This document shows positions 8,630 to 58,095 of a DNA stretch of 64,000 nucleotides, piece after piece. This DNA comes from Parcubacteria group bacterium. GTDB taxonomy: Bacteria > Patescibacteriota > Minisyncoccia > JACPHC01. The DNA is taken from the NCBI GenBank assembly GCA_016188775.1, contig JACPHC010000007.1, positions 28,097 to 92,096 of the forward strand, in the 5' to 3' direction. The number at the start of each line of letters is the position of its first letter. The stretch's first letter is position 1. A program made the position numbers and the translations under genes. The notes under the pieces were generated by a model. It had not been told where the DNA came from. It saw only the letters and a list, made by a program, of their open reading frames with translations, and did no database searches.

Positions 8630-8688
8630 AATAAAGCATCCGCGCCACCCTACGGGTGGCGCGGTATTGCAATAATGCTTTGTTATGA
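8630..8688 (+). mobile_element. Partial copy of AATAAA-core miniature element
   Basis: AATAAAGCATCCGCG-hairpin-ATTGCAATAATGCTTTGTTATGA matches the left end of the 19512 copy. Confidence 0.75.
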
Positions 8689-8731
8689 GCGGCTTGATTT
8701 TATCGCGCCGCTGATAGTTTAAACCTATTAC

Positions 8732-9382
8732 TTATTTTTTTTCCAATTTTCCGTTGTTTAAATAATAAAGCGTGTCGCCGAGGTTTTTGGCGTCAGTCGG
8801 GTCGTGAGTGATAATAATGGCTGGCAGACGCAATTTTTTGATGAGCGCTCTAAGCTCTCGGCCCACCGATTCTTTTGTTTCAATATCAATCGCGGAAAGC
8901 GGCTCGTCAAGAAGAAATAATTTGGGCTGTATGGCCAGCGCTCTGGCCAGAGCCACGCGCTGTTTCTCTCCGCCGGAAATTTTTTCAACGTTTCGTTGGC
9001 CAAGTTCGTCGGGCAGTTCCGCGATTTTCAAAAGTTCTCTCACTTTTTTTTTTCGCGCCTCGGCGTCTTGTCCGCGGACGGCTAAACCAAAGCCGATGTT
9101 GTCTTGGACGGAAAGATGCGGAAAGAGTCCGTAATCTTGCGGGACATAGGCGATCTGTTTTTTTTCTATGGGCAAGGAAATTATATTTTGACCGTCAAAG
9201 GAAATTTCTCCCGCTTCAGGAACAATAAACCCCAAAATGCATAAAAGAAGCGTAGTTTTTCCAGAACCGGATTTGCCCATAACCGCGACAATTTCATTTT
9301 CATTGACCGCAAGATTAAGCCCGTCAAGAATTTTTTTATCATTATAGGATTTTGTCAGATTTTTTATTGTCAGCATTGGCAT
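8732..9382 (-). CDS. ABC transporter ATPase (ModC/CysA/PotA-like)
   Basis: GKSGSGKT, ISGGEKQR, LLDEP, ITHD. Confidence 0.9.
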   Translation of the reverse strand: MPMLTIKNLTKSYNDKKILDGLNLAVNENEIVAVMGKSGSGKTTLLLCILGFIVPEAGEISFDGQNIISLPIEKKQIAYVPQDYGLFPHLSVQDNIGFGLAVRGQDAEARKKKVRELLKIAELPDELGQRNVEKISGGEKQRVALARALAIQPKLFLLDEPLSAIDIETKESVGRELRALIKKLRLPAIIITHDPTDAKNLGDTLYYLNNGKLEKK

Positions 9383-9391
9383 AAAAATAAT

Positions 9392-10171
9392 TTATTCCAC
9401 TTTACGTTTAAAAAGGGAACGGACAATAATAATAGTGAAAAGAGCGAATATCGTTAACAGAGCTGTCGCGGCAAGGGCGAGGAACGGATTCGCGTCTACA
9501 ACTCGGCTGGCGTATGTCGGCAGAATTTCTGTTTTGTAGGAGATCACTCCGGCAAAAATAAGCGAGCCGCCGAATTCTCCCATGGCTCTAGCCCACGAAA
9601 GAGTAAGGCCGGCTGTAATATCGCGGCGAGCTAGGGGGATAAGAACGCGAAAAAGGACATCGCGCGCGCCCGCGCCCAAAGAGCGCGCGACTAAATCCAA
9701 TTTGGAATTTTTTATTTCCCGAAATTTTCTCAAGGTGTATCCGATCGTGAACGGAGCGGAAACCAAGAGTTTGGCAATGACTACCGCGGTGAAAGTGAAC
9801 GCGATATTGATTGGCGAAGACGGCCCCAGCATAAAAAGGTAAATGACGCCGACTGCCACCGGCGGAAAAGTTTGGGGGATATCGATCAAGAGCGCTTCCA
9901 CGAAATTATTATAGCGAAAAGAGCTATAGGTGAGAAAATAGGCTACCGGTATGGCAAAAAAAGCGGTCAGCAACACCACGACAACGGCGGAAGAAAAACT
10001 GATGAGGAAAGCGGACCAAAACCTTCCATCTTGAAGAACGGCCGATGCCGCGTCAAACTTTACAAAAAAAACGACAAAAAGAAATAAATACGGGATAATA
10101 AACCAGGCAATCCAGCTCCATGACGATATTTTAATAAAGAAATTGGTTTTGTCTTTTTCAGTTCTGTTCAT
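9392..10171 (-). CDS. Molybdate/sulfate-type ABC permease (ModB-like)
   Basis: PPVAVG, ARSLGA EAA-like loop, ARAMGEFG. Confidence 0.85.
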   Translation of the reverse strand: MNRTEKDKTNFFIKISSWSWIAWFIIPYLFLFVVFFVKFDAASAVLQDGRFWSAFLISFSSAVVVVLLTAFFAIPVAYFLTYSSFRYNNFVEALLIDIPQTFPPVAVGVIYLFMLGPSSPINIAFTFTAVVIAKLLVSAPFTIGYTLRKFREIKNSKLDLVARSLGAGARDVLFRVLIPLARRDITAGLTLSWARAMGEFGGSLIFAGVISYKTEILPTYASRVVDANPFLALAATALLTIFALFTIIIVRSLFKRKVE

Positions 10172-10379
10172 AAAAAATTATTTCAGACGCTTTTTTCACT
10201 CTGTATAAATAAAATTGATAAAATTTTTGAAATCATTAATTTAATAATTATTGTTTATTTTCAATAAAAATTGGCGGCGTCTGTTTGAAAATATCTCCGC
10301 CAGAGGCGGACAGGCGAACGGAACTGGCTGGGCCCCGCCTGCGTTGAAACTTCGGCGGGCAGGTTGGCGAATTCCTGAA

Positions 10380-11963
10380 CTATCTTTTATAAACGGTTGG
10401 AGAATTGAAAATTAAATTTTCGCTACAGCTTATTTCCTGATGTTCTATTTTTAAAGTTTGATTGTTTTGCAACTGCATCAATATTCTTCCGGAAATCGGC
10501 TTGGCGGAGCTTACTTGTTGGTGACTGCCGCTTTGATAGCAATATATTTGGCCGTCGGCTTTGACTTCGCTCGGTTCACGATTTACAAGTCCTTTGTATT
10601 GCGGCGTGAAATCAATCGAGCCATGATTCGCGATAACTCCCGCCACTCCAATTACGCCGATAGAAGGGTCGGTGTTGTTATGCACGATACCCATAAGGAT
10701 AAGATCATTCAATGAATCCGGCTGGCCTTGAGCTTTCCAGTTGCCCTGAATAGTGCCGGCTTTGTCCTGCATCACCTCGCCGCAGCGCGGCGGAACCTCG
10801 CGGTCAAATTTTTCGTAGAGCTGTTCTTTGAGAGGTGAAGGAAAGTAATCAATCGGGCATGTTGTGTACTGGAGCCGATTATCAAACTGTTCGCCCAGAA
10901 ATCCAAGCTTGGGTATGCGAAAATCATAGACACCCCAGTCTAAGGTCGCCCCGGGGTAGTCGGGTCCGCCGGCAGTGCCAATGATTTCTCCGGGCTTTGT
11001 TATATAATCTATACGATAACTCTTTAGAACGGTTTCTTGATTTCCCTCCATGTCGCTTGCCACAAGCTCTGTGTTTTTGGCATTTTGGACGGCTTGCTTC
11101 AGGGCATCGGAAATGGTCCCCATAGCTTCGAAGTAAAAAAGAACTTCCTTGCAGGGCGTGAACCCTATTGAGTAGTATTTGTCGTCAACAATTACGCCGT
11201 TTACTTTTTTGATAGTTTGACGTACGCCAATGATATGAACTGCGCCCGGCGCTTTGATGTCGGTTAAGATGGGACGCCCCGCGCCCTCGCCCATTTGTGG
11301 CAATAGGTACTCCATGTGATCCATAGGTATCGCATGATGCGGCGTTCCAATATGGCCTAAAGGAATAAGACGGTTTACCATAGAAACATCGATTGGAGAA
11401 TCGGTGAGAAGAATATTCCCGACGCAGGACGAAAGTTTTTCCGTAACGGGTTGATTATAAGTAAAGTCATTGCCTTTTGTGCCTTGGGTCGCGGGACAAT
11501 TTGCCATTATCCAATCTTGTTCGTCTTTAGCAAGCGGCCTTGAAATCCCATTTGTAATGGCCAAGGTCTGGAGACCCTCACGCATTCGTATTTCATCGGG
11601 ACAAGAGAAAGATTTAGACGAGGCTGCGTTCATTTGCTTTGGTGACGACACATTTGATTCGTTGAGTCGAGCTCTCGTTTTCGGGCCGACAACGCCAATT
11701 TGCTCGATCCCATATTTTGCTTGTAATTTTTTTACTGCTTTTTCGGTTAACGCGCCGAAATAACCGCTCACCAGCCCTTCTGGATAAATTTCAGGCATCG
11801 TTTTTAAAACCTGCTGGAGGCGTGCGACTTCATTGCCGGAAGATCCACGCTTTAAATATGATTGGAAAACTGAACTTTCAGCGTAAACTAGCGGGATTGC
11901 CGAAAAGAATAAGAGCAGCAATAAAGTTATGCAAATGAATTTCACGCGCGTTTTATTTCTCAT
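10380..11963 (-). CDS. Secreted protein with N-terminal peptidoglycan-binding (PG_binding_1) domain
   Basis: Signal peptide; LKRGSSGNEVARLQQVL...GYFGALT...VGPKTRA. Confidence 0.7.
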   Translation of the reverse strand: MRNKTRVKFICITLLLLLFFSAIPLVYAESSVFQSYLKRGSSGNEVARLQQVLKTMPEIYPEGLVSGYFGALTEKAVKKLQAKYGIEQIGVVGPKTRARLNESNVSSPKQMNAASSKSFSCPDEIRMREGLQTLAITNGISRPLAKDEQDWIMANCPATQGTKGNDFTYNQPVTEKLSSCVGNILLTDSPIDVSMVNRLIPLGHIGTPHHAIPMDHMEYLLPQMGEGAGRPILTDIKAPGAVHIIGVRQTIKKVNGVIVDDKYYSIGFTPCKEVLFYFEAMGTISDALKQAVQNAKNTELVASDMEGNQETVLKSYRIDYITKPGEIIGTAGGPDYPGATLDWGVYDFRIPKLGFLGEQFDNRLQYTTCPIDYFPSPLKEQLYEKFDREVPPRCGEVMQDKAGTIQGNWKAQGQPDSLNDLILMGIVHNNTDPSIGVIGVAGVIANHGSIDFTPQYKGLVNREPSEVKADGQIYCYQSGSHQQVSSAKPISGRILMQLQNNQTLKIEHQEISCSENLIFNSPTVYKR

Positions 11964-12156
11964 AAAATTATTTTACTAACTCTTTTATTGAAACGCTCAA
12001 TGCTTTGACAATATTATCGAGCCAATGACTTCGTTTTCCAACTGGCGGGACATTCGGGCTAAGTACCCGTGATATACAAGCAGTATAAGGCTTTTTTGAG
12101 CTCTTTTCCAAAACGTGATTTGATGGGGTTCAGTCGTGGTCGAAAACGAAAACTGC

Positions 12157-13665
12157 TTACGGAACTTTAACGAATTGAGGAAGCGTAGCATTGTCTGAAA
12201 TTTTTAAATTTTCTCCGGTAAGCGGATCTAACATCCAAAGCTGGGGAAAAGATGGATCGAGTTTTTCTCCCTTCACGAAATCGCGAGGCGCTACGCGGTA
12301 ATAGAACTTACCGCCATAACTTGAGGCAATCCCCCAAATAAACTGTTCCTCAAGAGGAATTTTAAGACCGCCAATTTTATATTCTTGCAATGTTCTCTTT
12401 GAAGTATCAATTACTGTCAGCCAACTTTGTTGTTTTTCATGTTGTACGTCCTTAATTCTATGAATAGCAAGAAAGCGGCCGTCCTTTGACCAGACAAACT
12501 CGCCAAATAAGCCGGAATATATACCACCCTTAACTTCAAAAAGGAAATTGCCGTCATCATCAAAAAACAATGCTTTCGGGGTTATATAATTTTCGCTTGC
12601 CAAACAACAGCCGCCGTTTACCACAAGTTTTTTGCCATCCGGAGACCACGCTGAAGCAGAAAAGTATTCCGCGCCATTGGCGAGCGACATGGTAAGAATA
12701 GTTTTTACTTGAGTTCCATCCATGCTTGCAAGCCTCACCGCGGCGTTCGCCGTGTACGCAAATTGCTTGCCATCGGGCGAGAAAATTGGCGGGGGCATTA
12801 ATCCCTTCGGAATCCGAGAGAAATCTCCATACGAATCAAATTTCTTAATAGTGTTTTTAACAATATCGAGCTCCCAGAAGAGAATAGTTTGTGTACGCAT
12901 TTGAGAATCTTCGGTCAGCGTACGCAGCAGCGCCTTTTTACCGTCCGGGTACCACGCTTCAAAATCAGCCTTCTCAAAACCCTCGGGAGTTTTTAATTTA
13001 AATAGAGCGGTGCCGTCGGTTTTGACAATATAGAGAGCGGTGGCAATGTCGGTCACCTGCGCTCTCAAGACAGGATCGTATCCTAGCGGTTTTTCTTTCT
13101 CGATGTTTTCAAAAACGATATATTCTCCATCAGGAGAAATGCTATAAATACCCGTAGCTTTCGCTCTGCTGGTTATTTTTTCCTGGGGCCTGAAGGCAAG
13201 ATCTCCCCTCCAGATCTCCCCTTCATTAATGTAGAAAACGCTTGTCGCATTATCTAGAACAGCGAAATCCGCGCTTAGAATGGCCGGCTCCGGAACATTT
13301 AAACGTTTTTTCCGAACCTCATCAAAATAAATGAGGGATTGCCCAGCATTCACGTCTCTGATTCCCACGCCGTAGTAGAAAAGCGGGAATTTTGTTTCGG
13401 AAGGATATTCTTCGAGGAAGGTCAAAGTTGTTGCGGCGCCTGTTTCTCTCTTGAGTTCGCTTCGCTCAATCACTCCCTCGAAGGATCGCCCGGGGGCGCT
13501 AGATTGCCACGTCAACCTCGGCAGTATGAGAAACTTTATCATCATAAAAAGAAGAAATAAAATCGCGGCAATGACGAGCATTGCGACGAGTAATCCGATC
13601 AACCATCTCTTTTTACGACGTTTCCGGTCGTCCCCCTTTTGATTGGGAAACTCGTTTTTCTGCAT
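12157..13665 (-). CDS. Membrane-anchored TolB-like beta-propeller protein
   Basis: N-terminal TM; repeats SPDGE, WYPDGK, FSPDGK, WSPDGK, WSKDGR. Confidence 0.75.
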   Translation of the reverse strand: MQKNEFPNQKGDDRKRRKKRWLIGLLVAMLVIAAILFLLFMMIKFLILPRLTWQSSAPGRSFEGVIERSELKRETGAATTLTFLEEYPSETKFPLFYYGVGIRDVNAGQSLIYFDEVRKKRLNVPEPAILSADFAVLDNATSVFYINEGEIWRGDLAFRPQEKITSRAKATGIYSISPDGEYIVFENIEKEKPLGYDPVLRAQVTDIATALYIVKTDGTALFKLKTPEGFEKADFEAWYPDGKKALLRTLTEDSQMRTQTILFWELDIVKNTIKKFDSYGDFSRIPKGLMPPPIFSPDGKQFAYTANAAVRLASMDGTQVKTILTMSLANGAEYFSASAWSPDGKKLVVNGGCCLASENYITPKALFFDDDGNFLFEVKGGIYSGLFGEFVWSKDGRFLAIHRIKDVQHEKQQSWLTVIDTSKRTLQEYKIGGLKIPLEEQFIWGIASSYGGKFYYRVAPRDFVKGEKLDPSFPQLWMLDPLTGENLKISDNATLPQFVKVP

Positions 13666-13692
13666 ATGTTAAATAATATCTCGAATCGAAAA

Positions 13693-13850
13693 AGTCAGAC
13701 ACCCCCGCCAAAGGCGGTGGCTTGATGAGTAGAATCGTCTCAAAGACGATCGGCCACGCTTGACGCTAGTGGTTAATGTTTAGAAGGAACCCTCACGGCT
13801 CTCCTCTTGATTTTCAATATACTCCCGAACCTGTTCGACTTCAAATTCGG
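13693..13850 (-). mobile_element. IS200/IS605 right-end relic with TnpA C-terminal fragment
   Basis: Minus strand encodes EFEVEQVREYIENQEESREGSF* (YIxNQ catalytic Tyr helix), then hairpin AAGCCACCGCCTTTGGCGGGGGTG and TGAC end. Confidence 0.7.
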
Positions 13851-13860
13851 AACGACTTCG

Positions 13861-14208
13861 CGCTACCTATGCTATGGCTGCGCGCGAAGCAAAAACCTGC
13901 ACTGTAAGAATGGCTATATAAGGGAAGAGGAATTGATAGACTAACTGGTCAAAGTAATGGATAAAATCGATATCAATGAAATAGGCATGCGGCGCAAATT
14001 CGAAGAAGAAGTATCACGGTTCATGAAATTCCAAAAGAGCTTTTTCACGGGCGCGAAGAAGTTGAAGCCGGAGAAGAATATAGACTTGCGGAGCTACGCG
14101 AAGTACCTGTTACGAGAAGGCAGTGTGATCGAGAAACGCGAATTGCTATCGTGCATCAAAAATAAACTCATCCTAACGCAGAAAGCTCTGACGATAGAGA
14201 AAAAGTAG
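13861..14208 (+). pseudogene. Large serine recombinase C-terminal relic
   Basis: YGCARSKNLHCKNGYIREEEL zinc-ribbon end, in-frame TAA at 13942, coiled-coil tail; adjacent to a tRNA 3' end. Confidence 0.65.
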
Positions 14209-14315
14209 AAAAAAATAATACAGCAGAAAAATCTGCTGTATTATTTTGTTTTCGCGTTGAGCGTTCCGGTCTCACTAACGCCATCAGCGAGTCGGTTCTC
14301 GATAGCGAAAATCGT

Positions 14316-14407
14316 TGGCGGTGGGCAGAGGATTCGAACCTCTGTGGGATTTTTTAGATCCCGACGGTTTAGCAAACCGTTGCCTTAAGCCACTCGGCCA
14401 GCCCACC
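14316..14407 (-). tRNA. tRNA-Ser(GCT)
   Basis: GGTGGGC...GCCCACCGCCA, loop TTGCTAA, long variable arm. Confidence 0.95.
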
Positions 14408-14464
14408 TTTATTTACCCATCATGTTTCAATTTACCCGATTTTTTATTTTTTGGCAATCGTAAA

Positions 14465-14498
14465 ATCTATGGGAGTTCAACTCCCATAGATTTTTTTT
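14465..14498. terminator. Intrinsic terminator after comF
   Basis: AAAATCTATGGGAG-ttcaa-CTCCCATAGATTTT hairpin. Confidence 0.65.
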
Positions 14499-15207
14499 AT
14501 CGGGCAACAACGATTGCCCAGATTTGTTTGGCTCCGGCGGCTTTTAAAATAATAGCGCATTCTTCCAAAGTCGCGCCGATGGTGGAAATATCATCAACCA
14601 AAATTACGATTTTATTTTTGATTATCTCCGGTTTTTTGACAACAAAGGCGTTTTTGATATTTTCTTTTCGTTCTTCAATATTTTTGATTTCCGCTTGCGG
14701 GATGGTATTTTTAAAACGGATTAAAACTTCCGTCTCTAAAGGCAGACGAAAATTATGGGCGATAATTTTTGCCAAGAGCTCGCTTTGATTAAATCCGCGC
14801 CAGCTGTATCTTTGTTTTGAAAGAGGGACGGGGATAATTAAAAATTTTTCCGGCTCTAAATTTTTTGGAAAATAGTTTTTCAGAAAATTTACAAGAAGAT
14901 TGCCAAGCGGTTCGGATAAATCCTTAATAAAATTATATTTAAATTTTCGGATCGCTTTTTTGATAAATTCGTTTTCATAATGATAGCCGGCGAAAAATCT
15001 TCTTATTTTTGTTTTTCGCGAGCAATTTCGGCAGATTTTTCCCTCCGGCGATCTTTTTTGACAGACAAAACAATTAGGAGCGTTGGTCGGAATTTTGGCC
15101 GCGCAGTTTAAACAAAAATAGTTTCCCTCTCGGCCGCAAAAAATACAGGCTGCCGGGAAAAGCAGGTCAAGAATAAATTGATATGTGGATAAAATAGTTT
15201 CGCGCAC
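14497..15207 (-). CDS. comF: ComF family competence protein
   Basis: Double zinc ribbon, RGFNQ, LVDDISTIGAT PRTase motif. Confidence 0.92.
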   Translation of the reverse strand: MRETILSTYQFILDLLFPAACIFCGREGNYFCLNCAAKIPTNAPNCFVCQKRSPEGKICRNCSRKTKIRRFFAGYHYENEFIKKAIRKFKYNFIKDLSEPLGNLLVNFLKNYFPKNLEPEKFLIIPVPLSKQRYSWRGFNQSELLAKIIAHNFRLPLETEVLIRFKNTIPQAEIKNIEERKENIKNAFVVKKPEIIKNKIVILVDDISTIGATLEECAIILKAAGAKQIWAIVVAR

Positions 15208-15273
15208 TTTTTATTTATGGTATAATTAAAATAAGCGTTTCGCGCATTTTAAAAAAACGCTGTTTTAAAGTCA

Positions 15274-16347: not shown

Positions 16348-16370
16348 TTATTTTCATTTTTTTTTGAAAT

Positions 16371-16913
16371 ATGGCTATAGATTTATTAAAAAAAACAGAA
16401 GAAGGGTCGGGAGTTTTGCGTTTACGCAGGGTTCCGTCGACTTTGTCCACTTTTTTAGTCAGTCTCGTGACTTTAGTTATTATCAGCTTCGTCGGTCTTT
16501 TAGGTTTTAATTTTATTTTTGATCTTAAAGTTAAAAGTCTTGAGAAGGATATCAGCGAGACTCAAGTTCCGCTAACGGAGGTGGAGAGAATCAATGAGGT
16601 GAAAAATCGTTTGGCCAGTCTTGATTTTTTAATTTCCAATCATCGCCATCCGACTAAATTTTTTAAGTTTATTCAAAAGAATGCCGAGCCTAAAATCAGA
16701 TTTATCACTGTTAACGTTTCCGAGAACGCGTTGATTCTTTCCGGCGAGGCGGAAAATTATTCAGCGCTGGCCAAACAACTTGTTGTTTTTGAAAATAGGG
16801 AAATAAGTCAAGGAGTAAAATCGGTCGAACTCATAAGCCAAGGCTTAGGCGCTCAAGGAAGAATCAATTTCAATTTCCGCCTGGAATTGGAAAAAATTTT
16901 TTTTATTGAATAA
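16371..16913 (+). CDS. pilN: PilN-like protein
   Basis: TM, coiled coil, LSGEA ferredoxin-like fold; synteny. Confidence 0.7.
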   Translation: MAIDLLKKTEEGSGVLRLRRVPSTLSTFLVSLVTLVIISFVGLLGFNFIFDLKVKSLEKDISETQVPLTEVERINEVKNRLASLDFLISNHRHPTKFFKFIQKNAEPKIRFITVNVSENALILSGEAENYSALAKQLVVFENREISQGVKSVELISQGLGAQGRINFNFRLELEKIFFIE

Positions 16914-16918
16914 AAATT

Positions 16919-17467: not shown

Positions 17468-17469
17468 AA

Positions 17470-17769: not shown

Positions 17770-17770
17770 A

Positions 17771-19516
17771 TTGGCAAAAGAAAAAACATTTTTTGATATT
17801 TTAGAGTCCAAAGGTCTTTTAAAAAGAACCGAGATTGATTTTATCGCCAAAGAAGCGAAAGATAAAAATATTGACCCGGAAGAACTGCTGATTGATAAAT
17901 ATCGTTTTTCAGCCATTGAAATCGCTAAAGCCAAAAGCGAGCTTACCGGCGCTCCCTTTAAAGTCATTCGAGCCGAAATTCCATTTGATGTTTTGCAATT
18001 GATTTCGGAAGAAGCGGCTCGGCGTTATCGTTTTATCCCTTTGGCGAAAACGGATAATATTCTTGAAGTCGGCATGATTAATCCCGAAGACGTCAAAGCC
18101 CAAGAAGCGCTCAAATTTATAATTTTAAGAAGCGGTTTGACCCCCAAAATTTATATTGTCAGCCGTTCCGATTTTGAAGATGTTTTGAAACAATATCGCG
18201 GTTTAAAAGGCGAGGTCAAAAAAGCCCTGAAAGAATACACCAAAGAAGCGGCCGAGGAAGAAATAATTTTGCCAAAATCTCCCTTGATTGAGAATTTAGA
18301 AAGAATGGCGGTTGAGGCGCCGATAACGAAAATAGTCTCGGTTATTTTAAGGCACGCGGTTGAAGGCAACGCTTCCGATGTTCACGTTGAGCCGACCGAT
18401 AAACAGCTTCGGGTGCGTTTTCGGGTGGACGGCATTCTTTATACCAGTCTTTTGCTGCCGGTGGAAATTCATTCGGCCGTTGTTTCCCGCATCAAAATTC
18501 TTTCTAATCTTCAGATAGACGAGACGCGCAAACCTCAAGACGGCCGTTTTCACACCGTTGTTGAAGATAAAGAGGTTGATTTTCGGGTTTCCACTTTTCC
18601 CACCAGTTTCGGCGAAAAAGTGGCGATGAGAATTTTGGATCCAACCGTCGGTCTTAAGAGTTTCAGCGACCTCGGCCTTCTCGGACGCAATGCCGAGGTT
18701 TTGTTTGAAGGATTGAAGCGGCCGTTCGGCTTGATTCTTTTGACCGGGCCGACCGGTTCGGGAAAATCCACCACCCTTTACGCGATTTTACAGTTTTTAA
18801 ACAAAGAGACGGTTAACATTGTCAGTCTTGAAGATCCGATTGAGTATTTTTTGGCCGGAGTCAATCAATCTCAAATTAAACCCGAGATCGGCTACGATTT
18901 CGCCACCGGGTTAAGGCATATTTTAAGAGGCGATCCGGATGTTATAATGGTGGGGGAAATCCGCGATCGGGAAACGGCCGCTTTGGCGGTTCACGCCGCC
19001 TTGACCGGCCATCTCGTTCTTTCCACTCTTCACACCAATGACGCTTTCGGCGTCATTCCCCGGCTGATTGATTTGGGCGTTGAGCCTTTTTTAATACCCT
19101 CGACATTAACCATTGCCATGGCTCAAAGATTGATTCGACGGCTTTGTCCGGAGTCAAGGCAGGAGACTGAGGTTGACCCGGAAAAATCCTTGATGATTGA
19201 AAAAACTTTAGCCGATTTACCCAAAGAAATTAAAGAGAGCGTTAAAATTAAAAAAGGCGCCAAAGTTTATCGGCCATTGGTTTCGCCAACGTGCCCGAAA
19301 GGCACGAGAGGCCGAATTGGCATTTACGAGGTTTTGCGAATGACGCCGGGGTTGGAAAAAATTATTTTGGAAGAACCGTCGGAAGCTCGGCTGAAAGAAG
19401 AAGCTAAAAAACAAGGGATGGTTTCAATGTACGCCGACGGCCTTTTAAAAGCGCTGGAGGGCGTTATCAGTTTTGAAGAACTGCAACAGACTGCCCAAAC
19501 GCCGGATGCCGAATAA
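17771..19516 (+). CDS. pilB: Type IV pilus extension ATPase PilB
   Basis: ASDVHVEP, PQDGR, GPTGSGKST, GEIRD, LHTN. Confidence 0.93.
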   Translation: MAKEKTFFDILESKGLLKRTEIDFIAKEAKDKNIDPEELLIDKYRFSAIEIAKAKSELTGAPFKVIRAEIPFDVLQLISEEAARRYRFIPLAKTDNILEVGMINPEDVKAQEALKFIILRSGLTPKIYIVSRSDFEDVLKQYRGLKGEVKKALKEYTKEAAEEEIILPKSPLIENLERMAVEAPITKIVSVILRHAVEGNASDVHVEPTDKQLRVRFRVDGILYTSLLLPVEIHSAVVSRIKILSNLQIDETRKPQDGRFHTVVEDKEVDFRVSTFPTSFGEKVAMRILDPTVGLKSFSDLGLLGRNAEVLFEGLKRPFGLILLTGPTGSGKSTTLYAILQFLNKETVNIVSLEDPIEYFLAGVNQSQIKPEIGYDFATGLRHILRGDPDVIMVGEIRDRETAALAVHAALTGHLVLSTLHTNDAFGVIPRLIDLGVEPFLIPSTLTIAMAQRLIRRLCPESRQETEVDPEKSLMIEKTLADLPKEIKESVKIKKGAKVYRPLVSPTCPKGTRGRIGIYEVLRMTPGLEKIILEEPSEARLKEEAKKQGMVSMYADGLLKALEGVISFEELQQTAQTPDAE

Positions 19517-19695
19517 AGCATCCGCGCCGCAAGCGGCGCGGAATTGTGATAATGCTTTGTTATGAAAAGTTCTCGCTCGGCCCTGCCTGCCGGCAAGGCA
19601 GGCCGACCAACTCGCCTCGCTCGATTTAAACTCGTTTCGCTCGTTGCCTTCATCCCCGCGACAAGTCGCGTGGTATTCGGCGAATACATAATAAA
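19512..19695 (+). mobile_element. AATAAA-core miniature element, full copy with nested CCTGCCTGCCGGCAAGGCAGG repeat
   Basis: AATAAA at both ends; colinear with the reverse copy at 57917-58083. Confidence 0.85.
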
Positions 19696-26682: not shown

Positions 26683-29168
<2,486 letters not shown>

Positions 29169-42854: not shown

Positions 42855-42922
42855 TTTATTATGTGTTCGTCTAGCATTATCACAATGCCGCGTCATCCTG
42901 CGGGTGACGCGGATGCTTTATT
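42855..42922 (-). mobile_element. Internally deleted AATAAA-core miniature element
   Basis: Both ends present (TTTATT-ATGT.. and ..GGATGC-TTTATT); sits at the stop codon of the M23 gene. Confidence 0.75.
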
Positions 42923-44483
42923 TAAACATTTCTATCAATTTGACAGGGTCAGTAAGGGCCGTATTGATTCTGACTGCCAGATGTAAATGAGGAGCGTTGG
43001 AATTGCCGGTTGAGCCAACTTTACCGACGATGTCTCCTTTTTTGACAAAATCGCCGATTTTTACCGAAAATTCGGATTGATGGAGATAAAAAGAAAATAT
43101 TCCGGCGCCGTGATCAATTACCGTGATATTGCCTTCAAGAAAATAATCATAGCCGAGATGGACTATGTGTCCGGCGGCAATGGCTTTAATCGGATAACCC
43201 GCCGGAGCCCGAAAGTCAGTTCCGTGATGAAGTCGAGATTTTTTATTTTTTGGATTGACTCTTTGCTGGCCGAATGGGCTTGTAATTTGACCGATATCCG
43301 CTTGTTTTTCAACCGGCCAATCAAATCCGTCGAGCCAATAATTTTCAGGGCTTTGATTTTGATAAGCTAATATTAATTCTCTATGCTCTTTTTCAATTCT
43401 CGCGTTTTCTTCGTCTGTCCAGTTCCTTCGATTCCATTGCTGACTGACGCTTTTTTTGAATTTACCCTTTTTGACGTTGATGATTTTTTCTTCAATGGGC
43501 CCGTCATTGCCTTTCTGATAAATCGCGAGCGGATAATCGCCCGGCGCCAAATAAAGATCAATGCCAACAAGGGCGTATGTTTTACTGTCTTTTTTAAAAA
43601 AGACAAGATTATATTTTTTCTCTTGAACCGTCAGAAATCCCTCCAGATCGTTCGGATCAACCTCGCTTTTTAAAGGAATTATTACAGGATCGCCTTGGAA
43701 AGCCGAACCGGAGTGGATATTGTTTGAATTCGCGGAAACATCAATGACTATCCTCTGTTTTTCTTTTAGCCAAAGTATATTTTCATTTTCGGAACATTTC
43801 GGATTAATAAATTCGCAAAGTTTTTTCGCGTCTTCTTTAAATAAGCGAATACAGCCGTGCGAGGCCGGATAGCCGGGAAGGTCGCCGCTATGAAGCCAGT
43901 AAGCGATGCCTTGCTCGTCAATGAAAAACATTGATGCGTAGGGCATCGGAATCGCGTTTTCCTCCGCGTCTTTGTAGACAGAGGAAAAATGGTCGCGATG
44001 AAAAGCCAGTGTTTCAAATAAACCAGTCGGAGTTTCACAGTTTTTTATTTTTTTAGTTTTTTCGTCTTGGCAACTTAATCGTCCTGAACTGATGGGAGCG
44101 GAAAAAATTAGTTTTCCTTTTTCGTAAGCTCCCAGCCATTGCTCTTCCAAATTGACTAAAATGGATTTTTCCAATTTTTTTCTTTCTTCAATCCTTTCCT
44201 TAATAAAAGGCGGCATTGGCTCGTAATTTTTAGCCTCCTCTATGTTTTTGGGCGCTTTAATTCTGTCCCCGGAGATTAAATGATTTTTGTCCATCCTGTT
44301 GAAGCGCGCCACCCAAGGCCATTCATTTTTAAATAACTTATAAAATGAATCCCCGGGCCCAACTCGATAATAGCTCCAAGCAATATTATTTTGCGAAGGA
44401 TAAATTGGCAATTCTCGAGCTGAAACTGCGTTTCCATTTAGCCACAAACCGATTAAAAATCCAACGGCGATTTTAAAAAACAT
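42918..44483 (-). CDS. Secreted LysM-like + L,D-transpeptidase (YkuD) + M23 peptidase fusion
   Basis: LH.G.LPGYPASHGCIRL; HHGTDF and PHLH. Confidence 0.85.
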   Translation of the reverse strand: MFFKIAVGFLIGLWLNGNAVSARELPIYPSQNNIAWSYYRVGPGDSFYKLFKNEWPWVARFNRMDKNHLISGDRIKAPKNIEEAKNYEPMPPFIKERIEERKKLEKSILVNLEEQWLGAYEKGKLIFSAPISSGRLSCQDEKTKKIKNCETPTGLFETLAFHRDHFSSVYKDAEENAIPMPYASMFFIDEQGIAYWLHSGDLPGYPASHGCIRLFKEDAKKLCEFINPKCSENENILWLKEKQRIVIDVSANSNNIHSGSAFQGDPVIIPLKSEVDPNDLEGFLTVQEKKYNLVFFKKDSKTYALVGIDLYLAPGDYPLAIYQKGNDGPIEEKIINVKKGKFKKSVSQQWNRRNWTDEENARIEKEHRELILAYQNQSPENYWLDGFDWPVEKQADIGQITSPFGQQRVNPKNKKSRLHHGTDFRAPAGYPIKAIAAGHIVHLGYDYFLEGNITVIDHGAGIFSFYLHQSEFSVKIGDFVKKGDIVGKVGSTGNSNAPHLHLAVRINTALTDPVKLIEMFK

Positions 44484-47320: not shown

Positions 47321-47334
47321 ACTTTTTCTATCTG

Positions 47335-47760: not shown

Positions 47761-47817
47761 GGTTTTAAATTAATATTAAATCAATAATTCGACCTTTTAA
47801 ACTAATCATATTATATT

Positions 47818-48531: not shown

Positions 48532-48554
48532 AATTTTTTACTTATTTATCAAAA

Positions 48555-49645: not shown

Positions 49646-49651
49646 GGAAAT

Positions 49652-49679
49652 ATAACGAATAAAGTTTCAATACGTGACA
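49652..49679 (-). promoter_or_regulatory. Putative autoregulatory ECF promoter
   Basis: TGTCAC-N16-CGTTAT, 6 nt before the sigma ATG. Confidence 0.6.
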
Positions 49680-49689
49680 GCTAAATCGG

Positions 49690-51300: not shown

Positions 51301-51399
51301 ACGCGTCAATATAAATATCAAACTAAATTTAGTCAAGACAAATTTAACAAACAGAAAATAAAGCGTTAGATTAATTTTCATTATTCATCGGAAGGTTTC

Positions 51400-51463
51400 A
51401 AAATCAATTATAGCATTTTCTTTCATACTACGTAGTATGAAAGAAAATGCTATAATTGATTTT
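51400..51463. promoter_or_regulatory. 64-bp perfect palindrome with divergent extended -10 boxes
   Basis: 32-bp arms, no spacer, centre TACTAC|GTAGTA; TGCTATAAT on both strands. Confidence 0.75.
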
Positions 51464-51582
51464 TTTATCTTCTTAAAAGATTTTCTAATTATTTAAAGAG
51501 TTGATTTTTTTCTCATGCTTTTTTAAAAATAGCCTAGTTTGTTGACTTATTGATTTATATATTTATACTGAATTTTAATGAA

Positions 51583-51700
51583 TCCCGCACGGAGCCGCGA
51601 TCGCTTCTTCTTGGGATACGCATAAATATTATAAATTAGAAATTATAAAAATTAATACAAGCGGATTGCGTCTTTTGATCGCGATTTGCTTCGTACGGGA
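51583..51700. mobile_element. TCCCG..CGGGA TIR element on a start codon
   Basis: TIR TCCCGCACGGAGC / GCTTCGTACGGGA; TGAA duplicated. Confidence 0.8.
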
Positions 51701-52320
51701 TGAACCAGTTTTCCGAAAAAAATCTTAAATTAGCTATTGCTCTCCATCGTTTAACGACCTTTTTCCCCGAAGAAGAGATTCTGAAAAACCAGCTTCAAGA
51801 AAAAGCCAATGAAATATTTACTAATTCTTATTTGTTGGAAGAAGATGGCTTGAATCTGCCTGACGATAAGAGAATTGATGTTAAATATAATTTATTGGCC
51901 AGCCTTCGTTTAATGAACGGTTTTTTGCTTTTAGCCAAAAATTTGGATTTCCCCAAAAAAGAAAGCCTGGAAATATTGGAAAATGAATATCAGAAAATTT
52001 TCGAACAATTAAAGTATAAATTTGAAGAAAAAATTAACCATTTTGAAAGAGAAATTGATAGCGTTGAAAAAGAAAAGGAGCCGATTTTATCCCAGCTTTC
52101 TTCCCGACAATTAAGAATTATCAAAGAGATTAAGAAAAACAAAGAAATGCGAGTGGGGGATTTGGCCCATACTTTTGGAAACCGGTTTTCTCCCAAAACA
52201 TTTCAGCGGGAACTTCAAGAATTAATGGCTAGAGGATTAATTGAAAGAACCGGAGATTATAAAAACACTTATTATGTTTTATCCCGAGGGCTTGAAAAAG
52301 TTATAAACCCCGTTCATTAA
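51700..52320 (+). CDS. Helical-bundle + C-terminal DeoR-like winged HTH protein
   Basis: LSSRQ.RII...SPKTFQRELQELM..GLI...G...T.Y. Confidence 0.7.
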   Translation: MNQFSEKNLKLAIALHRLTTFFPEEEILKNQLQEKANEIFTNSYLLEEDGLNLPDDKRIDVKYNLLASLRLMNGFLLLAKNLDFPKKESLEILENEYQKIFEQLKYKFEEKINHFEREIDSVEKEKEPILSQLSSRQLRIIKEIKKNKEMRVGDLAHTFGNRFSPKTFQRELQELMARGLIERTGDYKNTYYVLSRGLEKVINPVH

Positions 52321-52332
52321 TCAGTAATTTTA

Positions 52333-52503
52333 CGGGACAATTCGGGACATTAATCGGACAATTTATCGGACAAAATATTGTGAAAGAAAATATTTATATT
52401 TGTCCGATAAAATTTATCGCTTTACTCAGATTTTAATTCAAAAATTTTTCAATTTTGTATATTAACAATTTATCAGACAATTTAAGACATTTGTCTGATA
52501 AAT
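52333..52503. repeat. Array of (TTTATC)GGACA direct and inverted repeats
   Basis: About 8 GGACA/AGACA/TGTCC/TGTCT units. Confidence 0.7.
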
Positions 52504-52588
52504 CGAGTTAAACTTTAATAATATACTTCATTACTCCTAAGCAAAACATTTTACTTGTCGTTGCGAGAAGGTATAAACCGACCCATTT

Positions 52589-52864
52589 GTCATCGCGAGG
52601 CGATAAAATCGCCGAAGCAATCTTTCAATGGTTATGAACTAAAAGCATTATTATATATACAATATACATACACATTAAAATATAACATTATAAAACTCGT
52701 TTATTACGAAACTTTTGACAGTCCGGAGGTAGCTATTCAAAGAAAAAAACAAACTAAAGGCGGTTCCCGTAAAAAGAAAATATATTTAATAAAAAGCATC
52801 AACCCTGAATTTAAAGATTTGAGTGATTCTCTTTGAGATTGCTTCGCCTTCGGCTCGCAATGAC
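52589..52864 (+). pseudogene. Truncated GIY-YIG nuclease flanked by GTCATYGCGAG REP-like arms
   Basis: KYNI.KLVYYE.F....AI.R.KQ.KGGSR.KK..LI...NPE.KDL; N-terminal GIY-YIG motifs absent. Confidence 0.8.
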
Positions 52865-52930
52865 AAATTAAAGTAAGATAATGTTCGCTTATCGGAAAAA
52901 TAACATTACAATTAAATGATATTTTCTGTC

Positions 52931-52998
52931 GTCATTGCGAGGCGATGAAATCGCCGAAGCAATCTCTCAATGACAAAGCAAATTCGGCTCGCAATGAC
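52931..52998. repeat. GTCATTGCGAG...CTCGCAATGAC repeat
   Basis: Same family as 23594-23911. Confidence 0.8.
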
Positions 52999-53586
52999 AA
53001 GGAGTGGCAGAATTGACATTTTTTGAATTTTAAAATAGAGTGTTTTTCGATTATTGTTTGTTCATTGTTTGACATTGAAAAATTTGTTATTATTAGTTTA
53101 TCAGGCTTTAAAAAAAGTTATCCACAGTTGTAGGCTTGCAGTGAAAAATAGAAGTCGCTATAATAATAAAGAAATGAATTTTAGTCGGCATTTTCTACGA
53201 TGATTAAGCCTTTTTGGCTTATTTTGACATTATAAATTTGAAAGCTTTGCCGGATATTGTTAAAATAAAATTAGCTTGCAATTCGCGAGTTATAATTTAT
53301 AAATTGTAATCCGCGAATTGCAAGTCCGGATCCTTGAAAATTAAATATGAAACAGTATGGTTGAGAGATAAAAGTATTATTAGTATTCTTAAATTTTTTT
53401 CTGTTTGTTAGCTTCGTGGTCGATGAAATTGGAAATCAAAAAAAGTCGAATTTTTTTGATTCAATAATTTCAGCTCTCTCTAAAAATTTGACATTATAAA
53501 TTAGAAAAATAAAATTGACAGGCTTAAGAAGATTGTCGGTTTTCTTAGCCTTGAAAAATTAATTAAAATTAAATCAAAATTAAATT

Positions 53587-56500
53587 ATGGAAAGTATATT
53601 AAGTTCCAGAATGAAAAAAGGGATTTCAAAAATCTCTTCAATCGTTCTGACTTTGACTACTACCATTTGGCTGTCGGGCCTTGCTGCCTTGATGCCAGTG
53701 GCCGTAGTTCACGCGGTTCATACTCCCGCCACCGAAAGTTTCACCTTCAAGAAAACGCTTAAATTCGGTTCGCGGGGCACTGATGTAACCGAACTCCAGC
53801 AAATCCTGATTGACGAAGGATTTCTGGATATAGACGAGCCAACTGGATATTATGGAAGTTTAACAAGAACGGCAGTTATGGATTTACAGGAAGAAAATGA
53901 TTTGCCGAGAGTTGGCGTAGTTGGTCCGTTAACTCGCGCGATATTAAATGATGTTCTTGAAGGAGGAACGGCCACTCCGGCTCCGGCTCCAACTCCGACT
54001 CCGACTCCGACCGCGACAGTTCTCGGAGTAAAAGTAGCTTCAGACACTCCGGCAGCCGGACCGGTGGCTAAAAACTCGCAAGATGTTTCAATGACAAAAT
54101 TAGATTTCACCGCGGGTGATTCAGATGTCACTATTTCATCTTTGAAGGTGACTCGAAGCGGTCTTTCCGCCGACTCAGATGTTTCTAACGTCAAATTATG
54201 GTGGAAAGGCGTTCAAATTGGTTCAACTCAAGCTCTTTCAACCACTACTCACACAGCGACCTTTACCGGTCTTAATGTGGTAGTCGCGAAAAACACGACT
54301 GAATCAATTTTGATCAGCGCTACTATAGCGGCTAGCCCGACCGTTGGCGACACTATTGTTCTTGGTATTGCCGCTCAAGGCGATATCACTTCAACGGTAG
54401 CGTTTTCAGGCACTTATCCTTTAAATGGTAATGCTAAAACAACTGCCGGCATTTCCGTCGGTCAGCTCGATGTTGATAAACAAACAACTCCGGCCGCGGC
54501 CACTATTCTTTCCGGCGCTACCGATCAGTCTATTGCGGCTTGGAAATTCGCGGCCAATGCCACTGAAGGATTTAAGGTTCAGAAAGTCAAAATTACCAAT
54601 ACCGGTTCAGCGGTTCCTGCTGATGTTTCTAATTTGAAACTGAAAATCGGCGCTGACGTGGTCAGTCCGACCGTTACCGCTTTAGGAGCGGATCAGACAG
54701 TCACCTTTGATCTTTCCGCCAGTCCGATTGCTATTACCGCCGGCACCAATAAGATTATCACCGCTTACGCTGATGTCGCGGCTGGAATCAATTCCGCCCG
54801 GACCATTATTTTTGAGATTACCAATGTCCAAGATGTGATGGCCACTGGCGATAATTCCGGCGGAGGCGTCACTATTACTCAATCAAGCGGCACCGCTTAT
54901 GTTAAACAGACCGGCGCTACTATGACTATTGGCCAGGGCACTTTAACTGTTGCTTTGGATACGGCGGTTAATCCGTCAAATAAGACTTATGTTAAGGGGA
55001 CCCCGGGCCGTCTTTTTTCCGCCTTTAAATTCTCAGCTGGTTCTACTGAAGGCGCTCGGATAACGGAAATTACCTTGACTCGGGTCGGCTCCGGCACAGC
55101 CACTGACCTTTCTAATATCACTTTGGTCAATAACGCCACTAACGCGGTTATTGCCACTGGCGGCAGTATTACCGGCAGCACGGTTAAATTCGGTCTTAAC
55201 ACTATTGGCTATGACGCCACTGGTTTGTTTGATGTGCCTGTTTCCGGCAATGTGACAGTTTTAGTTAAAGCTGACATTGCTTCAGGCGCGACTGCCACCG
55301 CGGTTGATAGTTTGGAGATTGCCGCTAATACCGATATTAAAGCTGATGGTCTGACTTCTAAATATGATATTGCCTCAGGCAGTATTACTGATAGCACTGG
55401 TTCGGGCAGTGAGGCCGACCATACCATTGGCGCTAAAGGCGACTTAACCGCCACTTTGTCAGCCAATGCTCCAGCCGCGGCTAATATCGTTAAAGGCGCG
55501 ACTGGTCTTAAATACGCCACCTTTACTCTAACGGCTGGCGATGGCGAAGATGTGGTTGTTTCCGGCTTGACTTTGACTCTTCAGAAATCAACTGGCACAG
55601 CCGCGGGTTCAGGCGACTTTACTAATGTTAAAGTTGTTAGAAGCGATAATAACGTTCAATACGGTTCAACTGTGGCTTCTCCGACCAGTTCCGCTTCATT
55701 CTCCGGTAATTTAGTGATTCCGGCCGGCACAGCCATTGATCTTCAAGTCTACTCCGATGTCCCGACTGGTTCCGCTTCTACCACCAGCCGCGTCACTATA
55801 AACGCCGCGGGCGATTTGACCTTGACCGGTTCTTCATCCAGCGCTTCAATTACCGCTGGCGGCACATACGCGATTAACGCTAACACAATGACTGTTGCTT
55901 CTGGCACGATTGTTCACGCTATGTTGGCTACTCCTCCGGCTTCCAGTTACGTAATCAATGCCGCCGGAGTAACTCTGGCTAAATTATCCTTGACTGCTGG
56001 CACGGCCGAAGATGTTAAAGTGACTACTATCAAGCTGACGGCCGCGACTTCCGGCGATACCGGATTTGTCGGCGCCAGTACTGCTCAGACTGATTTTGCC
56101 GATCTTAAGCTGGTTGACGATTCAGCCGGTACTAATATCTCTATCAGTCCGTCTGTCTTTACCGACGGCACTCCCGACACTATTACTTACACCGGTCTTG
56201 AATACACAGTGCCTAAAGGCATTCAGAAGATTATTCGAGTCGTTGGCACTGTTAAAGCCTCAACCGGAGTCTATATTATCGGTGTTAAAGCGAATGGCGA
56301 TGTTGTTGGTTCAGGTCTAACTTCCGGCGCTTCTATCAGCTCAACCGGCGGCACAGTTGCTTCTAAGAATATTACTATGACAACTGCCGGCTCTCTGGCT
56401 GTGGCTGATGGCGGCTCTCCGGTTAAAACTATTGTCGCTGTTGGAACTAGCGGCAAAACAGGCGTTGACTTTGCCAGAGTTAAGCTGACCGCCACTAATG

Positions 56501-57399
56501 AGGATATTAAGATTTCCAAGATTGTTATTACCAGATCTGGCGGCGCTAATGGAGATTTCTCCGCTGTTAAACTCTATGACACCACTACCAGTTCTACGGG
56601 TACGCAGATTGGTTCAACTATAAATTTTGTCGGCACTGCCACTACTGTTGATTTTAACTTCAATCCCGGATCTGAATTCGTTGTTACTAAAGACACGGAT
56701 AAATATATTACCGTCAGAGCCGATCTTAACGGCACTTCTACCGGTGCGGCTTCCAATGATCAGCCAATCTTGTCGCTTGCCGCTACCACTGACATCACTG
56801 CCACTGGTGTTGCTTCCGGATCGTCTTCAATCACTATTACCGGCACAGTCACCGGCAACGCTCAAGCCTTAGTCAAGGCTAAGCCGATTATTGAAAAAGT
56901 GGCCTTGTCAACTCTTGATATTACTCCGGGCGTTATGACTGTGTTTAAGCTCAAGATTACGGCTGATGGTGGCGATGTTAAATTCTTAAGTTCGACTGCT
57001 TCCAATAATATGAAATTTACCATCGCGCAGGCTGGAGGCACGACAACAACGAGAAATATCAAGATTGTCTTATCAACCGCTCCGGGCACTGTTTATGATC
57101 AAAACGCTAACAGCGCTACAACTGGAGCGGGCAACATTGATTTCACAACCGCTGGCACGGCCAACTTCGGATTTGAAGAAAATGAATTGACTGTTTTCTC
57201 CGGTACGCCGGTTACTCTTGATGTTCAGGCTGACTTGACCGATTACGCCACAGCCGGTGAATCATTCAGGCTTGATATAAATAATGCCAACACTGATCTT
57301 AGTTACAATGACGGAAGCGCGACAACCTCTGATATCAATTTGACAAGTTTCCTTGGTTATGGATTGCCAATTACCGGCGATACTGTGACTAAGAAATAA
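53587..57399 (+). CDS. Large S-layer-like surface protein (PG-binding domain + tandem Ig-like beta repeats)
   Basis: Signal region, GSRG.DV.ELQ..L..GY.G.LT PG-binding domain, PT linker, Thr/Gly/Ala-rich repeats. Confidence 0.75.
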   Translation: MESILSSRMKKGISKISSIVLTLTTTIWLSGLAALMPVAVVHAVHTPATESFTFKKTLKFGSRGTDVTELQQILIDEGFLDIDEPTGYYGSLTRTAVMDLQEENDLPRVGVVGPLTRAILNDVLEGGTATPAPAPTPTPTPTATVLGVKVASDTPAAGPVAKNSQDVSMTKLDFTAGDSDVTISSLKVTRSGLSADSDVSNVKLWWKGVQIGSTQALSTTTHTATFTGLNVVVAKNTTESILISATIAASPTVGDTIVLGIAAQGDITSTVAFSGTYPLNGNAKTTAGISVGQLDVDKQTTPAAATILSGATDQSIAAWKFAANATEGFKVQKVKITNTGSAVPADVSNLKLKIGADVVSPTVTALGADQTVTFDLSASPIAITAGTNKIITAYADVAAGINSARTIIFEITNVQDVMATGDNSGGGVTITQSSGTAYVKQTGATMTIGQGTLTVALDTAVNPSNKTYVKGTPGRLFSAFKFSAGSTEGARITEITLTRVGSGTATDLSNITLVNNATNAVIATGGSITGSTVKFGLNTIGYDATGLFDVPVSGNVTVLVKADIASGATATAVDSLEIAANTDIKADGLTSKYDIASGSITDSTGSGSEADHTIGAKGDLTATLSANAPAAANIVKGATGLKYATFTLTAGDGEDVVVSGLTLTLQKSTGTAAGSGDFTNVKVVRSDNNVQYGSTVASPTSSASFSGNLVIPAGTAIDLQVYSDVPTGSASTTSRVTINAAGDLTLTGSSSSASITAGGTYAINANTMTVASGTIVHAMLATPPASSYVINAAGVTLAKLSLTAGTAEDVKVTTIKLTAATSGDTGFVGASTAQTDFADLKLVDDSAGTNISISPSVFTDGTPDTITYTGLEYTVPKGIQKIIRVVGTVKASTGVYIIGVKANGDVVGSGLTSGASISSTGGTVASKNITMTTAGSLAVADGGSPVKTIVAVGTSGKTGVDFARVKLTATNEDIKISKIVITRSGGANGDFSAVKLYDTTTSSTGTQIGSTINFVGTATTVDFNFNPGSEFVVTKDTDKYITVRADLNGTSTGAASNDQPILSLAATTDITATGVASGSSSITITGTVTGNAQALVKAKPIIEKVALSTLDITPGVMTVFKLKITADGGDVKFLSSTASNNMKFTIAQAGGTTTTRNIKIVLSTAPGTVYDQNANSATTGAGNIDFTTAGTANFGFEENELTVFSGTPVTLDVQADLTDYATAGESFRLDINNANTDLSYNDGSATTSDINLTSFLGYGLPITGDTVTKK

Positions 57400-57479
57400 C
57401 TTGCTTGACTTAAAAATCTAGTTTCTTTGCCTAGTTTTTAAGCCTGATTTCTTCCCTTGATGGTTTAAACCTCAAGGGA

Positions 57480-57523
57480 GGATAATCAAAAGCCCTTGTT
57501 TTAACAAGGGCTTTTGATTATCC
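57480..57523 (+). terminator. Intrinsic terminator after the surface protein gene
   Basis: GGATAATCAAAAGCCCTTG..CAAGGGCTTTTGATTATCC. Confidence 0.7.
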
Positions 57524-57645
57524 AGATTTAAATTATTTTAAATTTTAATTCTAAATTCACGCTTCTACGGACGATCGTCGCTAAATGTGTAAATTTTTTA
57601 GAGTTTATTGACTTTAAACTTTCTACTTTGCTACAATTAATTTAA

Positions 57646-57864
57646 ATGAAAAAAACATCTTTAACTAACATAGTTTGGAAAGAAGGTAAATATTATGTTG
57701 CCCAATGTCTTAACGTTGACGTGTCAAGTTTTGGCAGAACAAAAGCCGAAGCTTTAAAAAATCTTGAAGAAGCGCTTGAACTTTATTTTGAAGATTTTTC
57801 CATTTCTAAAATTATTCGCGTAGAAAAGCCGGTTTTTGTTGAATTGTCTTTTTCAAATGCCTAA
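57646..57864 (+). CDS. hicB: HicB family antitoxin
   Basis: YVA.C....SS.G.T..EAL.NL.EAL.LY.E. Confidence 0.85.
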   Translation: MKKTSLTNIVWKEGKYYVAQCLNVDVSSFGRTKAEALKNLEEALELYFEDFSISKIIRVEKPVFVELSFSNA

Positions 57865-58095
57865 GTTTTATTCTTCTCGATACATCATTAAAGTCCTGGA
57901 AAAACAGGGCTTTATTTTTATTATGTATCCGCCGAATACCCCATCTCCCATAAGGAGACGGGATTGAGGCGGCGAGCGAAGCGAGTCTGAATCGAGCGAG
58001 GCAAGTTGGTCGAGCCGAGCGAGAACTTTTCATAACAAAGCATTATCACAATGCCGCGCCGCAAGCGGCGCGGATGCTTTATTTCTCAAACATGA
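57857..58095 (+). pseudogene. hicA: HicA toxin pseudogene (interrupted and truncated)
   Basis: MPKFYSSRYIIKVLEKQGFIFI-[element]-SQT*; GSH motif lost. Confidence 0.75.
57917..58083 (-). mobile_element. AATAAA-core miniature element, full copy
   Basis: TTTATT at both ends; reverse complement colinear with 19512-19695. Confidence 0.85.

Follow-up and report, generated by a model that had tools for sequence, protein, structure and literature searches.

A repeated element in the window and its neighbouring genes

We analyzed a 64,000-nucleotide stretch (the window; contig JACPHC010000007.1, positions 28,097 to 92,096) of a Parcubacteria group bacterium, which contains several copies of a short element that holds no gene and ends like an IS200/IS605 insertion sequence. 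An earlier, sequence-only reading had taken it for a site-specific miniature element present in four copies, and the exact 14-mer AATAAAGCATCCGC is found at all four places, 8630 (+), 19512 (+), 42909-42922 (-) and 58070-58083 (-). Allowing up to two mismatches gives five matches in the window, where shuffled sequence gives 1.25 on average; the additional one, at 27317, looks like chance. On the transposon (top) strand, which is the reverse of the orientation first proposed, a complete 161-bp element lies at 57922..58082 (+) and a complete 178-bp element at 19513..19690 (-), the latter beside its target TTTAT at 19691-19695 (-). The remaining two copies are, as had been described, incomplete: the one at 8631..8688 (-) is a remnant with the right end only, and the one at 42860..42921 (+; target TTTAT at 42855-42859) is internally deleted and lacks the left guide and hairpin described below.

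Three of the copies touch genes. The 178-bp element provides the stop codon of a gene for a pilB-like ATPase (PF00437; 17771..19516, +), and the deleted copy that of an M23/YkuD gene (42918..44483, -); both genes end on a TAA inside the element end, as the first reading had noticed. The 161-bp element breaks a gene that we take to be hicA-like, leaving its 5' fragment at 57857..57922 (+) and only the codons S-Q on the far side. The 72-aa gene next to it (57646..57864, +) is presumably hicB-like; in Pfam its product matched DUF7387 alone, below cut-off.

The genome that contains the window (G000; 767 kb in 10 contigs, C1-C10) holds 13 copies of the right end, the "start" of the sequence-only reading, and 8 full-length elements with 78-96% identity and a size of 161-178 bases. 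A 37-codon frame within the element is not conserved between copies. The left end of three copies has been lost or rebuilt, and the copies in G000 are probably old and partly decayed. In the copy at C6:23276-23439 the left end is a long perfect palindrome and the guide is gone, which suggests palindrome correction.

Anatomy of the ends

On the top strand the layout is TTAT followed by T, 10-13 nt, AATA, a hairpin and AT(G)A, then the interior, and then a 4-nt guide, a second hairpin, 4-6 nt and a terminal tetramer. In the 161-bp element the target motif TTTAT occupies host DNA at 57917..57921 (+), its tetramer TTAT being 57918-57921. The left-end guide AATA (57935..57938, +) is predicted to pair with this TTAT under the rule described for IS608 (PMC3201880). 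The left subterminal hairpin (57939..57963, +) is followed by AT and enclosed by an outer CGCC/GGCG stem. At the other end lie the guide (58050..58053, +), here AATG, the right subterminal hairpin (58054..58073, +), which the first reading had called the first hairpin and which is also followed by AT, and the terminal tetramer TTAT (58079..58082, +), the predicted right cleavage site, with 58083 being the +1 T of the target. The distance from the target to the foot of the left hairpin is 17 nt, and 5 nt separate the right hairpin from the terminal tetramer.

The two subterminal hairpins are in direct orientation and terminal inverted repeats are absent. Comparing the two ends of each of the 8 full copies yields inverted matches no longer than 4-6 nt, which are not conserved, and the subterminal inverted motif pointed out earlier occurs in just two of these copies. 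The claim that the hairpins keep their pairing while the sequence changes did hold: both sides are altered in 11 of 35 pairs, a value reached in none of 500 shuffles, the rows being related.

TTAT is found left of every parsed element, and the base preceding it is free (T 23, C 4, G 2 and A 1 among 30 left ends, one false match to a REP having been dropped). After the right end, T follows in 37 of 45 cases, A in 5, G in 2 and C in 1, with a T background of 45%. Elements of the G000 family end in the pentamer that also serves as their target, TTTAT, and begin with T. Since target and terminus are identical in this lineage, an insertion resembles a 6-bp duplication. By analogy, the sixth base of this hexamer fits a +1 preference matching the first base of the element, as in IS608, which favours at +1 the base that starts its left end (C) (PMC5934647). 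TTTAT and TTCAT are known motifs adjoining IS200/IS605 elements (PMC10055086).

The AATAAA that bounds the element on the other strand had been regarded as an invariant core. It is not invariant: the start reads AATAAA in 11 of 13 copies (CATAAA in C2, AATAAC in C4) and the end in 6 of the 8 full copies (AATAAT twice). Flanking hexamers thus vary, an outcome that the sequence-only reading itself had named as telling against a recombinase.

Relatives in other genomes and metagenomes

A covariance model, as the first reading had proposed, recovered relatives in 3 of 150 genomes of the class (G101, G109 and G040), and a second model did so in 2 of 150 genomes of the phylum (G448 and G003). Relatives thus occur in five genomes other than G000, and also in metagenome contigs. 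A pattern scan of metagenomes returned 39 stretches, 28 of which are family members, with 22 distinct right-end flanks between them; the other 11 were discarded by eye as chance (L137, 149, 152, 158, 160, 164, 165, 167, 171, 172, 173). A pattern search of the phylum matched 4 of 400 other genomes, and only the match in G410 resembles a genuine right end. A BLAST search for the element in 60 class genomes and a metagenome pattern taken from an internal 25-mer returned no match.

Longer copies with the same ends and a recombinase gene, which the first reading had suggested looking for, were not found, and no search made gave a long copy with these ends: the 55 stretches from a GTDB pattern scan were all chance-like, scans of viral sequences were empty or gave chance matches, and plasmid and phage BLAST gave no full match.

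Between relatives the interior is swapped wholesale while the end signals in the DNA are retained. An imperfect interior hairpin (57993..58021, + in the window) is kept in the family of G000, G101 and the metagenomes, with other hairpins in its place in G040, G109, G448 and G003. The interior at 57970-58021 also contains three CGAGCG-A-GCGAG-like motifs, for which hairpins with tandem G.A pairs are possible on the top strand, and such motifs occur alone, near tRNA-like sequences, at C3:62804 and C4:44044 of G000; they may resemble plasmid primosome assembly sites.

Several copies carry smaller insertions. A mini-palindrome of about 20 bp (CCTGCC-GGCAGG type) is present at differing sites within element copies of three genomes; its carriers are the 19513 copy of the window (21 bp, 19582..19602), copies on C5 and C7 of G000, L088 and L341. 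In the metagenome copies L141, L155, L156, L162 and L163 a nested structured insert of about 145 bp splits the junction-complementary stretch described below. Other structured inserts sit in the left hairpin of L145, L150, L144 and L088, and a further nested insert in L166.

Guides and terminal tetramers vary together

We collected 45 distinct right ends, 29 of which combine the guide AATA, AT after the hairpin and the terminal tetramer TTAT. Eight right ends, from G040, G109, G448 and G003, finish in TCAT instead; seven of these eight have the guide GATA, and six of the seven have AG at, or one base past, the foot of the hairpin. Because 23 of the 45 ends came from patterns that fix the A-type guide, and the parser demanded T(C/T)AT, the evidence is the contrast between lineages and not the counts. 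With TTAT on one side and TCAT on the other, these relatives show no repeat.

In IS608 the fourth guide base pairs with base -1 of the cleavage site. The four bases 5' of each hairpin select the cleavage sites, the first pairing with site base -3 and the second with -4, and the two bases 3' of the hairpin complete the triplets (PMC3201880). Judged from the sequences, the switch from A with TTAT to G with TCAT matches the T-A*T versus C-G*G triplet pattern of IS608. Of 30 tnpA-coding elements of the class, 20 have a right end that follows the same guide rule, where chance would give about 3/64 for each. Several of the ten that break the rule have mis-parsed hairpins or lack the end.

Insertion sites

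Two orthologues of the gene interrupted at 57922 (L362 and L363) read F-I-S-Q across a single TTTATT, which represents the empty site with one copy of the target. It had been claimed that removing this copy restores the reading F-I-S-Q; the empty site is borne out, but in the window only S-Q is regained, before a T and a stop codon, and the remainder of the hicA-like gene is missing.

On the other strand the target contains ATAA, and with it TAA, so that insertion at a stop codon keeps the gene intact, as in the pilB-like and M23 genes. In G000, 4 of 13 insertions are at a stop codon, against 7.6% of the eligible ATAA sites (p 0.014). Elsewhere it is only 2 of 30, so this is not a property of the family; the stop-codon insertions reflect survival or chance, not targeting.

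In L091 (1501-1730) and in the right flanks of L140, L157 and L168, elements follow one another in tandem or adjoin a left end belonging to a second miniature family. This is what renewed use, as a target, of the TTTAT next to an old copy would produce.

An internal 13-mer is complementary to the predicted end junction

The interior of the 161-bp element contains a 13-mer (58031..58043, +) that is complementary, at 12 of 13 positions, to the predicted junction of right and left end, made up of the right end's final 9 bases and the left end's initial 4. The one mismatch is a constant C.A within the terminal tetramer. The remnant at 8631..8688 keeps it at 8675-8687. In 17 of 21 elements the first four bases of the 13-mer fit the left-end tip perfectly, the exceptions being one subfamily (3 elements) and one G000 copy. 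They covary with the tip in three sequence types, TATG/CATA, TACC/GGTA and TGCG/CGCA, and the match was reached in 0 of 20000 shuffles, the rows amounting to about three lineages. When folded as predicted circles, 4 of 4 elements tested form the junction helix. The 12/13 helix is confined to the G000 family; a stretch related to the 13-mer in G040 and G109 is instead complementary to the target together with the left tip. Since target and terminus are identical, the 13-mer could equally pair with the integrated left end, or stem from template switching, and is thus no proof of a circle.

As a tentative suggestion, which we consider possible yet rather improbable, the 13-mer may act as a ligation splint or lock, so that this family would encode its own layer of control, aligning the ends or locking the junction, on top of peel-and-paste transposition. 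As a splint it would align the ends for circle formation; as a lock it would hold the circle junction until a target is met. Our literature search, which left supplements and subscription papers outside, found no description of a 13-mer complementary to an end junction. Should the helix be functional, it would open a short, testable way into the alignment or protection of single-stranded transposon circles.

A probable palindrome-associated transposable element

The dispersed copies, the anatomy of the ends, the covariation of guides and tetramers and the single TTTATT at the empty site are what we observe. Very probably, the element is a palindrome-associated transposable element (PATE) without genes and with ends of the IS200/IS605 type. 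Its likely mode of movement is single-strand peel-and-paste, for which a Y1 HUH transposase, TnpA, would presumably act in trans. It would belong with the PATE derivatives of IS200/IS605, as PATEs are defined in PMC3119063, PMC7290912 and PMC10055086. A TnpA dimer would bind the hairpins of both ends on the top strand and make two cuts, each 3' of a TTAT, one in the target and one at the element's terminus. The ends would then join into a single-stranded circle while the donor is resealed, and the circle would insert 3' of another TTAT, with T favoured at +1.

What the sequence-only reading had said on mobility survives in part. The element is site-specific, non-autonomous and not of the DDE type, and has no terminal inverted repeats; its hexamer is not a recombination core but combines the IS200/IS605 target (T)TTAT with the (T)TTAT at the element's terminus. 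What looks like a recombinase core can thus be an IS200/IS605 target and an identical element end, viewed on the wrong strand.

Several results weigh against a TnpA-mobilised element. The right guide agrees at each of the three positions in only 5 of the 13 G000 copies, which have AATA; the others have AATG (3), CATA (2), CATG, GATA or AATT (1 each). Orientation shows no bias in G000, where 7 of 13 copies are on the G-rich strand, and a weak one elsewhere (12 of 16, several on one contig); a lagging-strand bias is significant in just 25-32% of chromosomes (PMC3971601). IS200-type TnpA was detected in none of the six carrier assemblies (G000, G101, G109, G040, G448 and G003), all of them multi-contig, and we found no tnpA-coding element with the end sequences of the G000 family. 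Among the joints listed for four DNA contig sets from one study, three of them possibly from the source, there was neither a circle joint nor an empty-allele joint. The 13-mer was found in 0 of 9 parsed autonomous elements and, on the predicted folding, would hide the right cleavage site when paired.

Contigs of these four sets break at 52680-52970 and 51413-51462 of the window, where there are many variants and a 291-base joint that goes back; this suggests another repeat family.

The search for TnpA covered a profile run against the six-frame translation of G000 and against the miniature loci (no real match), the DNA adjoining the copies in G101, G109, G040 and the metagenomes (no tnpA found), and the assemblies G448 and G003 (no NF033573 match). 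The gap has a precedent: in Haloquadratum, strain-specific PATE insertions are described in a strain that has IS200-type transposases only as pseudogenes (PMC3119063). The element adds one more gene-less IS200 family to small groundwater-type genomes in whose assemblies the enzyme was not found. A literature search, with most subscription papers outside it, found no report of non-autonomous IS200 elements in Patescibacteria.

Other enzymes and other explanations

The sole Y1 HUH gene in G000 is RAYT-like (L002), and G101 and G109 likewise have only RAYT-like Y1 genes. This would suit IS200-like ends mobilised by a host RAYT rather than by true TnpA. However, the G000 gene is flanked by a 23-bp palindrome of its own that is unlike the element hairpins, no Y1 gene was found in G040, G448 and G003, which also carry miniatures, and tetramer targets with guide rules at two ends fit TnpA elements. 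We therefore regard mobilisation by RAYT as quite unlikely. The palindrome of L002 (on C6) both flanks the gene and interrupts it in frame (1253-1297, 1746-1767 and 1926-1949); L102-L104 show a similar arrangement.

Tyrosine recombinases act on folded single-stranded sites in integron attC and CTX-phage attP, and the element could be such a cassette, with the junction helix as its recombination site. The covarying 12/13 complementarity over the predicted junction and its folding in circles speak for this, as does the one XerC/D-like gene of G000 (L001). It leaves unexplained the covariation of guide, tetramer and triplet and the near-identity with the ends of tnpA elements, the TCAT-ending relatives share no core, and no element copy turned up in the locus of the Xer-like gene; such a cassette seems very unlikely, a little more so than the action of a RAYT. 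Immediately past the XerC/D-like gene (L001 1830-2045, on C9) are four tandem repeats of about 39 bp and an inverted partner.

G000 also has five serine-recombinase genes, and the three loci examined showed no tie to the element ends. Those of L079, L080 and L082 lie near contig ends (C10:324, C2:43058 and C7:100835); L079 has 522 aa and L080 585 aa, with a duplicated C-terminal stretch upstream of the start of L080. The neighbour gene at L081 is presumably terminase-like. Searches for IS91 Y2 and IscB RRXRR were empty, but the controls gave no signal either.

Could the element primarily be a gene for a structured RNA, such as an omega-RNA for a TnpB or IscB acting in trans? Its stems covary, and on the strand first read a conserved U-G wobble takes the place of the top strand's C.A mismatch; a TGTGATAAT stretch may resemble an extended -10 box. 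PATEs can encode omega-RNAs (PMC10055086). Against this, no Rfam family reached its gathering score (the best weak match has 26 bits, with a cut-off of 70 bits), TnpB is absent from G000 and above cut-off in just 4 of 301 class genomes, and the interior is replaced among relatives while the end signals persist. Hairpin covariation needs no RNA, since ends read by TnpA through their structure would give it too, and that the element is primarily an RNA gene appears highly improbable.

The IS110/IS1111 miniature proposed first, with an AATAAA recombination core and short subterminal inverted repeats, is largely refuted and the least probable of all: it would account for the lack of terminal inverted repeats, the hexamer at both ends of most local copies and the inverted match of 6 nt that two of the 8 full copies have, but IS1111 repeats are 11-13 bp long and 7/3 nt from the ends (PMC11187229), against 4-6 unconserved nt here, the core varies and is missing in relatives, and G000 has no match to PF02371 or PF01548 in searches whose controls were positive in 6 of 14 genomes.

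Comparison with known systems

IS1111/IS110 elements are alike in being site-specific, lacking terminal inverted repeats and having a circular intermediate (PMC11187229), which for the present element is a prediction; here there are no 11-13 bp subterminal repeats, no invariant core and no DEDD transposase.

The phylum also has IS200 elements that are autonomous; four of these, L331 (G514), L124 (G329), L320 (G758) and L114 (G371), share the TTTAT target, an AATA or AAAA guide, ATGAA past the left hairpin, and right ends of the GATA/TCAT or AATA/TTAT type. L331, of 535 bp, reads TTTAT, AATA, hairpin, ATGAA at the left and GATA, hairpin, AG, TTCAT at the right of an IS200 TnpA (NF033573, 152 bits); the right end of L320 is AATA-hairpin-ATGA-TTTAT, and that of L114 is nearly identical to the right end of the G109 miniature. 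They differ in carrying tnpA, with a length of about 535-550 bp, and their ends differ in sequence from those of the G000 family, so that none of the four is shown to be the cognate mobiliser.

With IS608 of Helicobacter pylori the element shares a guide tetramer 5' of each hairpin that would pair with the cleavage tetramer, a triplet-forming dinucleotide 3' of the hairpin (PMC3201880) and a +1 base equal to its own first base (PMC5934647). The spacing is similar, with 19 nt at the left and a site 10 nt 3' of the hairpin foot in IS608 (PMC3201880) compared with 17 nt and 5 nt here. Unlike IS608, the element has no tnpA or tnpB, its tetramers are TTAT/TTAT and not TTAC/TCAA, and its hairpin tips are highly variable.

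The closest likeness is to the PATEs of Haloquadratum walsbyi (PMC3119063) and the PATE-like ISGst miniatures (PMC10055086). It differs from them in that the target is the terminal motif itself (TTTAT), mimicking a 6-bp duplication, and in its junction-complementary 13-mer, which has no match in the descriptions compared. Like them, it has no coding room for a transposase, no terminal inverted repeats and no true target duplication, and it shares with them near-terminal palindromes, a left end with the longer tip, copies that have lost the core, small repeats nested within copies, and persistence in a genome where no intact tnpA was found.

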